Virus record (IMG/VR): IMGVR_UViG_2850756110_000008
Direction: 5' to 3' (one strand)
DNA: 12,650 nt
Source: a virus
Lineage: Duplodnaviria > Heunggongvirae > Uroviricota > Caudoviricetes
Of the stretch, positions 310 through 2,166 are shown one piece after another. The notes beneath the pieces are model-generated. The model was not told the DNA's origin. It searched no databases and saw nothing but the letters and a program-made list of their open reading frames with translations. Position 1 is the first letter of the stretch. The number at the start of each line of letters is the position of its first letter. Both the position numbers and the translations under genes were made by a program.

Positions 310-321
310 CAAGTAAATAAA

Positions 322-341
322 AACCCGCTCAACAGCGGGTT
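322..341 (-). terminator. Rho-independent terminator (tR'-like) downstream of the Q gene
   Basis: An 8-bp stem (322-329 pairing 334-341) with a 4-nt loop; on the minus strand it is followed by TTTATTTACTT. It lies about 110 nt downstream of the Q stop codon. Confidence 0.6.
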
Positions 342-374
342 CGTGAAAATTATCAACGGCAGACATACAAAGCC

Positions 375-416
375 CATCGTTGAGAAAATCTTATCCATGT
401 TTTTTGAAAAATGCAA
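375..416 (-). promoter_or_regulatory. Late promoter PR'-like with qut-like pause element
   Basis: On the minus strand: TTGCAT (plus 416-411), 17-bp spacer, TAAGAT (plus 393-388), then AACGAT at about +1 to +6. This resembles the -10-like sigma-dependent pause element of lambda PR' as I recall it. Position immediately after Q is as expected. Confidence 0.45.
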
Positions 417-447
417 GCTTCATGTCGCCATCTTCGGCGAAAATCAC

Positions 448-1200
448 TTATCTCGTCACCTTTCTCAATTGTGTTTCAGCATATGCTTCTTCCTGCCAGC
501 ACTTTGTTACTAGTTTATCAATTACGTCTGCATATCCTTTGTACCACTGATAATCAGTCAGGTCTGGAACCAGCTTCTGGACATGACGTCGTGCCAGTGT
601 AGTTGGTAAACGGCTAAACCGGTTTCCATTGCAACGCCCACAAATCTTATAAACAGGCGTGCCATGAAGCCGGGTCCTTTTTTCATCCAGGACAATACCT
701 TTACCCTTACACCCTCTGCACGCTGTGCTGACTTCTCCCTTACCATGACAATGCTGACATAGTTCCTTCACCCACTCTTCCTTGATAACAGATTCCCCGC
801 TTCTGGAGTGTTTCACCACCTCGCGCAATACATTATGAAATCCAGTACCAGCACAATGCTCACAGCGAGCCTTACTTGCCGCAGACCTAGAATAATCAGC
901 AAAGGCAAAATTCACAAGGTAAGGAATGATCTGTAGCCGGGTTTCTTCACTCAATTTATTCAATGTCGGGTTATCCAGTGCCATCGCGTAATTGAGCAGA
1001 CCTTCAATCGCAAACTGAGGATCCTGAACACCAACTTTTGCCAGGAATAAGGCAAACCCAAGCGGTGCTTTCGACTGCACCATCCCCTGCGCAGCCATCA
1101 CATCCGTAATCGTTAAACCACCAGAGCCTGTCGCCGGTGCGTCATCGCTCAGTTTTGGAGATTTCGGGGAGTAATATTTCGGTAAGGCTTCAAGGTTCAT
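448..1200 (-). CDS. Q: Lambdoid antitermination protein Q (82/Qin-type, 250 aa)
   Basis: 250-aa ORF with GGAG 7-8 nt upstream of ATG. Cys/His-rich zinc-binding region (CEHCAGTG...CQHCHGKGE...CRGCKGKG...CGRCNG) and overall resemblance to prophage Q homologues (QuuQ-like). Located at the end of the nin operon, before PR'/tR'. Confidence 0.85.
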   Translation of the reverse strand: MNLEALPKYYSPKSPKLSDDAPATGSGGLTITDVMAAQGMVQSKAPLGFALFLAKVGVQDPQFAIEGLLNYAMALDNPTLNKLSEETRLQIIPYLVNFAFADYSRSAASKARCEHCAGTGFHNVLREVVKHSRSGESVIKEEWVKELCQHCHGKGEVSTACRGCKGKGIVLDEKRTRLHGTPVYKICGRCNGNRFSRLPTTLARRHVQKLVPDLTDYQWYKGYADVIDKLVTKCWQEEAYAETQLRKVTR

Positions 1201-1213
1201 GCTCGTTCTCCAC

Positions 1214-1924
1214 TTACGCCAGTACGCCTATTGCCAGCGCACGATCGATAAAACGAAATATCAGCTCCAGCTGGGAACCATACTTCTCTTCAAATGCCAC
1301 GGTATCCGCATGCAGCTCGTCGTGATGCTTTCTGCACAAAGGCAACACAAAGAGGTCATGCGCTTTTGTACCCATTCCCCCCTGACCGTGGCCTATCAGG
1401 TGGAGGGGATCATCAGCAGGCTTTCCACAACATGCACACGGCTGTGTCTTAACCCAGCGTGTGTACTTTTCATTAACCCAGCGGCGACGTTTTGGGCGTA
1501 ACATAAAAGACTCCGGCGACTCCGGATCCACTTTCAGCGCCAGCACCTTTTTCACCTTATCCTGGATGATGCTGGTGGCAGGAACCGAAGGCACAAGGTC
1601 ACTTTCCCGGGTGACAGACGGCACAACAGGCTTCGGTAATCTCAGTGCCTTACGGGCTGCACTTTCCGGTAAGGCATCCGCCAGGTCATTACGAATCAGC
1701 CACCAGCACAGTTCCGGCATTGTCACAACGTGACTATCATCAAAACCGAGATCCCGACGCACAACAGACAACACCCAGCGGGCACAGTTATCCGTTGCCA
1801 TTGATTCCAGCCGTTCCGTGAACTGATCGCGCAGCTGGTTATCGCAGTGCCAGCACAGACGGATTGCGCCGGCGCGTGTCGCATTGTTGTCATGTTCTCG
1901 CTGTGCCAGTCGGAATGAGGCCAC
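1214..1924 (-). CDS. YdfU/DUF968-like phage protein, C-terminal part (HNH-like Zn motif); apparently frameshifted relative to 1723..2166
   Basis: C-terminus CACCGKPADDPLHLIGHGQGG...LCRKHHDELH is typical of the DUF968 family found just upstream of Q in Qin-like prophages. The ORF opens with GTG at 1924 with no plausible RBS, and its first 39 codons look like genuine protein (CWHCDNQ). Confidence 0.6.
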   Translation of the reverse strand: MASFRLAQREHDNNATRAGAIRLCWHCDNQLRDQFTERLESMATDNCARWVLSVVRRDLGFDDSHVVTMPELCWWLIRNDLADALPESAARKALRLPKPVVPSVTRESDLVPSVPATSIIQDKVKKVLALKVDPESPESFMLRPKRRRWVNEKYTRWVKTQPCACCGKPADDPLHLIGHGQGGMGTKAHDLFVLPLCRKHHDELHADTVAFEEKYGSQLELIFRFIDRALAIGVLA

Positions 1925-2166
1925 TGGCAGCCTTTTTCACGAAGTAACCAGCTTTCAAGACATTCCACGCCACCAGCACGACGGATCACTGCCTCATTGC
2001 GGAACACGGCCCGAACGTCAGGATCATCCGCCAGCGGTTGTGATGCCGCCGGAACAGCACCACTGGCGAAAGATGAATAACGTTCCGGCTCAGGCTCCAG
2101 CAGGACACGCCCCTGCATAAACAGGGGCATCAGCTCTGAACTTGGTCTGAACAATACGATCCCCAT
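1723..2166 (-). CDS. N-terminal fragment of the same DUF968-like gene (different frame)
   Basis: Begins 40 nt after the KilA-N gene stop. The first ~85 residues look protein-like; downstream of about 1920 the frame becomes Cys-rich low-complexity junk, while the other frame opens at 1924. Likely a single gene with a 1-nt indel near 1895-1925. Confidence 0.4.
   Translation of the reverse strand: MGIVLFRPSSELMPLFMQGRVLLEPEPERYSSFASGAVPAASQPLADDPDVRAVFRNEAVIRRAGGVECLESWLLREKGCQWPHSDWHSENMTTMRHAPAQSVCAGTAITSCAISSRNGWNQWQRITVPAGCCLLCVGISVLMIVTL

Follow-up and report, generated by a model that had tools for sequence, protein, structure and literature searches.

The question raised by this locus was whether a stretch of fewer than 100 nucleotides (positions 322-416) carries a compact late promoter, Q site and terminator (PR'-qut-tR') with a lambda-like pause element on its minus strand, as the first-pass annotation had proposed. 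The window, that is the whole stretch of DNA which was analyzed, is 12,650 nucleotides long and comes from IMG/VR virus record IMGVR_UViG_2850756110_000008 (Caudoviricetes). A Q-dependent cassette consists of a Q gene, the promoter PR', a sigma-dependent pause element, a terminator and the late genes, and the Q proteins of such cassettes belong to three unrelated families (PMC9388147). The observation made in the first-pass annotation was confirmed. The unit is very probably the late-gene regulatory cassette of a lambdoid prophage with an antiterminator of the Q-lambda family, and it is an uncharacterised but straightforward example of the textbook Q-lambda-type cassette.

The coordinates of each element were fixed by pattern searches of the window, and TTGCAT, a 17-bp spacer and TAAGAT were all found at the places where they had first been read on the minus strand. 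The -35 element TTGCAT occupies positions 411-416, with a TTG which is invariant in 14 members of the clade described below; it is followed by the 17-nt spacer TTTTCAAAAAACATGGA at 394-410 and by the -10 element TAAGAT at 388-393, of which T1, A2 and T6 are invariant in the clade. Within the spacer the sequence TTCAAAAA-ACA-TGG (395-408, minus strand) is a candidate Q-binding element, a role suggested by its conservation and by the position of the corresponding sites in lambda and phi80. Beyond the -10 element the minus strand reads TTTCTC (382-387) and then AACGAT (376-381), the sigma-70-dependent pause element at +1 to +6, identical to lambda PR' in sequence and spacing, with a GGG discriminator-like element directly after it at +7 to +9 (373-375). 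AACGAT had been expected at about +1 to +6 and is indeed present there, but its position had been given one base too low, as it starts at 381 and not at 380. By homology with lambda and phi80, transcription would start at approximately position 381.

The gene which lies immediately upstream of this unit (448-1200, minus strand) encodes a Q antiterminator of 250 aa. The protein matched Pfam family PF03589 (E 3.8e-54; 181 bits, cutoff 26.7) and was 35% identical to lambda Q end to end except for one insertion (BLASTP 3e-43), and its stop codon, at 450-448, is 31 nt ahead of the -35 element. Further upstream are the genes DUF968/YdfU, KilA-N and RusA, a set which is usual in the nin regions of lambdoid phages. 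An ORF of 147 aa (1723-2166, minus strand) between the KilA-N and DUF968 genes, which overlaps the start of the DUF968 ORF, gave no Pfam match. The insertion in the Q protein comprises 48 aa (residues ~119-166) with two extra CxxC pairs and is located inside the zinc-ribbon arm; it gave a sub-threshold match to DnaJ_CXXCXGXG. In lambda the Q-binding element (QBE) is a 13-bp asymmetric site in which the helix-turn-helix body contacts positions 1-4 and the zinc-ribbon arm contacts positions 11-13 (PMC9388147). As the arm which contacts positions 11-13 in lambda carries the insertion here, the details of DNA recognition probably differ from those of lambda. The Q protein of phi80 (37% identity over its full length) has a comparable arm insertion, so that this extended-arm subtype already has a studied representative. 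The 250-252-aa form of Q is widespread in Enterobacteriaceae, and one 90%-identity cluster holds 3,896 member sequences.

The late promoter of the lambda record has the sequence TTGACT-TATTGAATAAAATTGGG-TAAATT-TGACTC-AACGATGGGTTAATTCG. Alignment with the lambda PR' region, which had been suggested as a check, gave the same spacing throughout (-35/N17/-10/N6/AACGATGGG) and a run of 12 contiguous identical bases, CTCAACGATGGG. Lambda has the same Q family (PF03589), an identical +1 to +9 pause element, an intrinsic terminator and then lysis genes, and its spacer contains TTGAATAA...TGG at the positions of the spacer motif in the window, so that the pattern TT(G/C)A...TGG is common to both at the place where the lambda QBE lies. 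The two differ in the -35 element (TTGACT in lambda, TTGCAT in the window), in the -10 element (TAAATT and TAAGAT, respectively) and in the distance to the end of the terminator (~+193 versus +61). The TTTCTC which precedes +1 in the window agrees with the TTGACT -35-like element of lambda at only 4 of 6 positions. In lambda AACGAT at +1 to +6 is followed by a GGG discriminator-like element and the pause occurs at +16 (PMC4005639), and the sequence T+14-N-Y+16-G+17 favors the scrunched paused state (PMC9191641). The proposed match of AACGAT to the sigma-dependent pause element of lambda PR' was borne out by the lambda record and by both of these papers. In the window the nearest T-N-Y-G is TATG at 364-367 on the minus strand (T+15 N Y+17 G+18), one base downstream of the lambda position. 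It is a possible pause-site motif with a weak basis, and the match is not kept in the Qin-type relative, which has TATA at this place. By analogy with lambda, a pause would be predicted at about +16/+17.

The hairpin terminator which had been read about 45-60 nt further on corresponds to tR' (315-342, minus strand), located by a terminator scan and by folds. Its hairpin, GAACCCGCU-GUUG-AGCGGGUUU, lies at 342-321, which is +40 to +61 if +1 is position 381, and is followed by UUAUUUA. The terminator scan gave a stem of 9 bp with 5 G-C pairs, a 4-nt loop and the U-run UUUUUAUUU, which is interrupted; the SfV counterpart has seven U. In the records of SfV and Ayreon the homologous hairpin carries a terminator annotation, and HK225 has an annotated terminator as well. 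The 3' ends of the RNA are predicted near 320-315, which would give an RNA of ~62-67 nt. A predicted RNA of 68 nt (381 to 314) folded into two hairpins with -21.3 kcal/mol, a value which beat 200 of 200 shuffles (z = -3.44), and the tR' hairpin dominated both the MFE and the centroid structures. Rfam searches of the whole window at gathering thresholds and of positions 290-450 in E-value mode found nothing near a family threshold; the best match, Trp_leader with 19.5 bits against 41, was rejected as a generic hairpin-plus-terminator match. RNAalifold gave no structure for 16 terminator segments, a result which was uninformative because MAFFT had mis-registered stems with unequal loop lengths, and we therefore relied on hairpins predicted for each sequence individually. 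By this approach a tR' hairpin and T-run were found at the same position in every clade member which has the unit, with stem sequences that differ.

A small inverted repeat, TCGCC-GAAGAT-GGCGA (425-440, minus strand), is present between the Q stop codon and the -35 element, and lambda and P22 have TTGCCA-CGGA-TGGCAA at the same place. A conserved stem in this interval was considered and rejected, as the stem is weak in the window (z = -1.9) and lambda, phi80 and Qin lack it. Strong terminator-like stems between Q and the -35 element were seen in mEp237, in Erwinia phage 49 and at one further locus, L042 (z -3.8 to -5.4).

The promoter hexamers are weak. They agree with the sigma-70 consensus at 7 of 12 positions, and PR' was not called in a generic promoter scan of the window. 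AACGAT by itself is not informative, as the window has 11 copies where 6.2 would be expected. The composite TAAGAT-N6-AACGATGGG carries more weight, with an expectation of 0.04 occurrences per window at up to 2 mismatches. It could be argued that the hairpin only ends the early-right (nin/Q) operon and that the hexamers upstream of it are a chance resemblance, with no promoter present. The hairpin follows the Q stop codon at a distance of ~105 nt and would halt polymerase which arrives unmodified from upstream, the hexamers fall below the threshold of the generic scan, and in the SfV and Ayreon records the terminator is the only annotation at this place. Chance resemblance would, however, leave unexplained the identity of layout with lambda PR' and phi80 pR', the block-wise conservation of the -35 element, spacer motif, -10 element and AACGATGGG across genera where neighboring sequence diverges, and the restriction of the pause hexamer in the scan described below, and we regard it as very improbable. 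The two roles of the hairpin, as terminator of the nin/Q operon and as tR', are not mutually exclusive. The decisive evidence for a promoter unit is comparative, rather than statistics on a single sequence.

The diversity of loci for this comparison was drawn from a genome scan together with tblastn against annotated phages, as lambda Q and the Q alignment, when used to scan viral contigs, brought up near-identical copies only. The genome scan with the Q alignment, in which each species was represented by one genome, gave 48 loci; 24 were examined, with lambda-identical copies represented once. Sixteen loci had the 250-252-aa type of Q, and the unit was present in 15 of these, whose Q is 64-98% identical to that of the window and which come from Escherichia, Shigella, Enterobacter, Mangrovibacter, Kosakonia, Phytobacter, Atlantibacter, Scandinavium and Buttiauxella. 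These 15 loci follow the pattern TTG...-N17-TA...T-N6-AACGATGGG (variants AAAGAT and AATGATAGG), then a hairpin and T-run, and the sixteenth locus (L017) has a different sequence directly after Q. In an alignment of 14 sequences the invariant columns were TTG of the -35 element, TTC, AA and TG(G) of the spacer, T, A and the final T of the -10 element, AA.GAT.GG and some further positions as far as ~+27. Upstream of the -35 element, in the linker at +28 to +39 and in the terminator stem the sequences were divergent. The conserved spacer motif TTC(A/G)(A/G)AAA-N3-TGG is a candidate for the Q site of the extended-arm subtype.

Across the Q-lambda family as a whole the blocks are conserved at loci from ~15 genera. 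The same layout, with sequences of their own, was found in the distant phages P22, phi80, mEp237, HK225, SEN22 and Bp96115, as well as in Erwinia vB_EhrS_49, Proteus Brookers, Klebsiella and Cronobacter phages and an Stx2a phage. Two phages, mEp021 and Providencia PSTCR3, have a Q-lambda-family gene without a recognizable PR'/pause/terminator unit right behind it (in mEp021 the next ORFs begin there at once), so that their late promoters must be elsewhere or differently organized.

Q/PR' copies identical to lambda also came up in the same scans. The assemblies which contain them (L026-L052) bear the labels Oceanobacillus, Neobacillus, Kitasatospora, Bradyrhizobium, Shewanella, Segatella, Collinsella and others, and one such copy is in a record named Campylobacter phage CJLB-4. 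Contamination of public assemblies with lambda DNA, or its use as a spike-in, is the most likely source of these copies. An Escherichia-type Q locus (95% identity) was also present in a metagenome-assembled genome assigned to Veillonella parvula, and here the label is probably a binning error.

The viral collection was also searched with a pattern in which the spacer motif, the T-A...T of the -10 element and GG were fixed and the pause hexamer was left free. This gave 120 hits, 102 of them with a -35 TTG at the right distance and therefore true promoter contexts. In these the hexamer was AACGAT in 96, AATGAT in 4, AACAAT in 1 and AACGCT in 1, the last being of the phi80 type and offset by one base. 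The 18 hits without a -35 context had unrelated hexamers and served as an internal negative control. Among the 102 true contexts only positions 3 and 4 of the hexamer vary, and positions 2 and 6 never do. In recognition of a -10 element, positions 2 and 6 are the two bases which are flipped out by sigma region 2, and the motif is therefore conserved exactly as the proposed function in binding sigma region 2 predicts. The natural variants collected in this way indicate that positions 3 and 4 are the only ones of the sigma-dependent pause element which are free to vary. The first-pass annotation had made its reading depend on conservation of the motif in homologous regions downstream of Q, and such conservation was found in the clade alignment, in the distant phages and in the free-hexamer scan. 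Its reading of a PR'-qut-tR' unit with a lambda-like pause is accordingly supported by the Q family, the lambda geometry, the literature and conservation. What was observed directly comprises the sequence elements, with their geometry and conservation, and the family to which the Q protein belongs.

A studied counterpart with an extended zinc arm in its Q protein (gp17) is phi80, in whose record the -35 and -10 elements of pR' and a terminator are annotated. Its -35 element, TTGCAT, is identical to that of the window, its 17-bp spacer ends in ...AAAACTGGA, its -10 element is TAGATT, and a -10-like element followed by GGG and a compact terminator are also present; the Q site is annotated within the spacer, at -28 to -22. 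Phi80 differs from the window in its pause element, AACGCT, which begins 7 rather than 6 bp after the -10 element, in a second terminator ahead of the holin gene, and in the core of its spacer (TCGCGGA rather than TTTCAAA), the last of which implies a different specificity of the Q site. In P22 (gene 23) a Q of the Q-lambda family is likewise followed by a late promoter and a compact terminator, and a short late-leader RNA is described in the literature; here the Q protein is 96-97% identical to lambda Q and lacks the arm insertion, and the element reads AACGAA-TGG. The Q21 and Q82 cassettes follow the same logic, with a promoter, a sigma-dependent pause, a Q site and a terminator, but their Q proteins are unrelated (PF06530 and PF06323) and the Q site and pause are placed differently, the pause in phage 82 being at +25.

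The predicted short transcript had been expected to be much shorter than lambda 6S RNA. This held, as the U-run of the lambda terminator ends ~193 nt from +1, but shortness is not a distinguishing feature of this locus and is typical of the family. The end of the terminator stem was placed near +58 in P22, near +70 in phi80, near +52 in mEp237/HK225 and at +51 to +68 in the clade with the 250-aa Q, and these values rule out the idea that the compactness of the unit is unusual. With P22, phi80 and HK225 equally compact, the short unit is the typical form and the ~193-nt RNA of lambda is the outlier. Short late-leader RNAs regulated by antitermination are documented for lambda, 21, phi80, 82 and P22 (PMC7547250 and its references).

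The only peculiarity of the copy in the window is an IS1 element just past tR'. The end of this element (C-terminal part of the transposase and terminal inverted repeat; DDE_Tnp_IS1, E 5.9e-51) occupies positions 1-309 on the plus strand. The insertion lies 12 nt beyond the tR' stem with its junction at 309/310, and IS1 continues beyond position 1 of the window. Positions 470-310 of the window are matched by many E. coli chromosomes at 99.4% identity and the match ends exactly at the IS1 boundary; the IS1/tR' junction itself was found in none of the complete E. coli genomes of the collection, and the DNA may therefore come from an IS1-rich relative, for example Shigella. An uninterrupted relative continues past the junction as ...GGGTTTTTATTTACTTG|TACTGAAAC, and beyond this point an ORF of 111 codons comes first, then a second hairpin resembling a terminator, and after these the genes for holin, lysozyme and Rz. 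From such uninterrupted relatives the native order can be given as Q, the PR'-tR' unit and the lysis genes. Late genes are thus found downstream of tR' in the family, whereas in this window IS1 is there instead, and the late operon of this prophage has probably been displaced or lost.

For the intact cassette, homology with lambda and phi80 suggests the following course of events, from initiation and pausing to Q binding and antitermination. When Q is absent, sigma-70 RNA polymerase would start at PR' with +1 at ~381, and sigma region 2 would then re-bind the -10-like AACGAT and GGG on the non-template strand of the initial transcribed region, so that polymerase would pause near +16/+17. On leaving the pause it would terminate at the tR' hairpin (320-315) and release a non-coding RNA of ~62-67 nt. 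When Q is present, the protein would bind its site in the -35/-10 spacer and load onto the paused complex, and the Q-modified polymerase would resist pausing and termination and read through tR' into the late operon for lysis and morphogenesis. A genome-wide sigma-70 pause study contained no start or pause data for the Qin copy, and a literature search on quuQ/ydfT returned nothing about this promoter.

In lysogens PR' is constitutively active and its transcription is terminated, and the ~65-nt PR'-tR' RNA could in addition be a functional, constitutive trans-acting sRNA, a proposal which would add to the cassette reading and not replace it. A precedent is StxS, the PR'-tR' RNA of an Stx phage, which is an Hfq-dependent sRNA and which led its authors to propose such RNAs as a general source of sRNAs (PMC7547250). 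StxS is likewise made constitutively from PR' and ended at tR' in lysogens (Sy et al. 2020), but its PR' and tR' are 258 nt apart and RNase E processing yields a 74-nt Hfq-bound RNA, whereas the RNA of the window would be ~65 nt as a whole; we found no sequence relation between the two. The predicted RNA has an sRNA-like architecture, with a 5' hairpin, an A/U-rich linker and a terminator with a U-tail. The unit is very common, its Qin-type copy being present in 1,629 of 5,426 complete E. coli genomes, and the same would hold for such an RNA. Against this, the single-stranded linker at +28 to +39, which would be the natural candidate for a seed, is the least conserved part and shrinks to almost nothing in the Enterobacter, Atlantibacter and Buttiauxella relatives, the conserved positions +1 to +27 are already accounted for by the pause element and pause region, and no Rfam family came near threshold for the ~65-nt RNA. 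We consider a trans-acting function for this RNA unlikely.

For the conserved CGTT(G/A) at +24 to +28 a further explanation was considered, namely that a 5'-terminal stem-loop which includes the pause element is formed by nucleotides +1 to +27 of the late RNA (355-381, minus strand). The pause element AACGAUGGGC is complementary to +18 to +27 (GUCUG.CGUU), and the predicted pairs are +1 to +4 with +24 to +27 and +6 to +10 (UGGGC) with +18 to +22. A stem of this kind could shield the long late mRNA from decay that depends on the 5' end, or limit backtracking after escape from the pause. It appears in both the MFE and the centroid predictions, and across 32 distinct clade variants 93% of cells were paired, compared with 29-47% in slid registers. 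The same complementarity with other loops was seen in lambda (CAACGA/TCGTTG), P22, mEp237 and a Proteus phage, and apparently compensated pairs were seen in Citrobacter and Yokenella (AATGA/TCATT), in Pectobacterium (AACAA/TTGTT) and in SEN22 and Bp96115 (AACAG/TTGTT). The own-arm score was 4.13 against 3.45 +/- 0.09 for shuffles, and a combined lineage test gave p ~1.6e-5 if lineages are treated as independent. Individually, however, only 5 of 17 lineages were significant (<=0.05), with 0.19 for the clade of the window and nothing in SEN22, Erwinia and Serratia. Covariation within the clade was not above shuffles, because the 5' arm is nearly invariant there; 5 of 33 natural variants break a pair of the stem without compensation, most of the changes are transitions, which are common anyway, and the two sigma-70-pause papers searched for a stem of this kind make no mention of one.

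The 5' stem is therefore suggestive but unproven as a model, and as an explanation of the conserved CGTT(G/A) we hold it possible but doubtful. Were it true, the pause element would have a second role at the level of RNA. The wider proposal, that +1 to +27 folds as a 5' stem which aids the late mRNA or Q-modified elongation, that the ~65-nt RNA is a constitutive prophage sRNA, or both, has in our judgment a small chance of being correct.

For the late-gene regulatory cassette itself, the understanding of Q antitermination is unchanged, and the main gain is one of annotation, in that PR', the pause element, the likely Q site and tR' have been located for the QuuQ/SfV type of Q; a promoter is annotated at this place in none of the records inspected. 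The same Q/PR' type is present in SfV and in Stx2c-converting phages. In one Stx2c phage (L230, 4325-6918) a near-identical PR'-tR' has two small ORFs behind it, along with a DNA methylase of 352 aa and a pair of tRNAs (tRNA-Met/tRNA-Arg), the layout usual upstream of stx genes, so that this type of PR' presumably drives stx2c. In the Stx2c-converting phages control of the late promoter governs toxin output, and it is the Q/PR' type found in this window which heads their late region.
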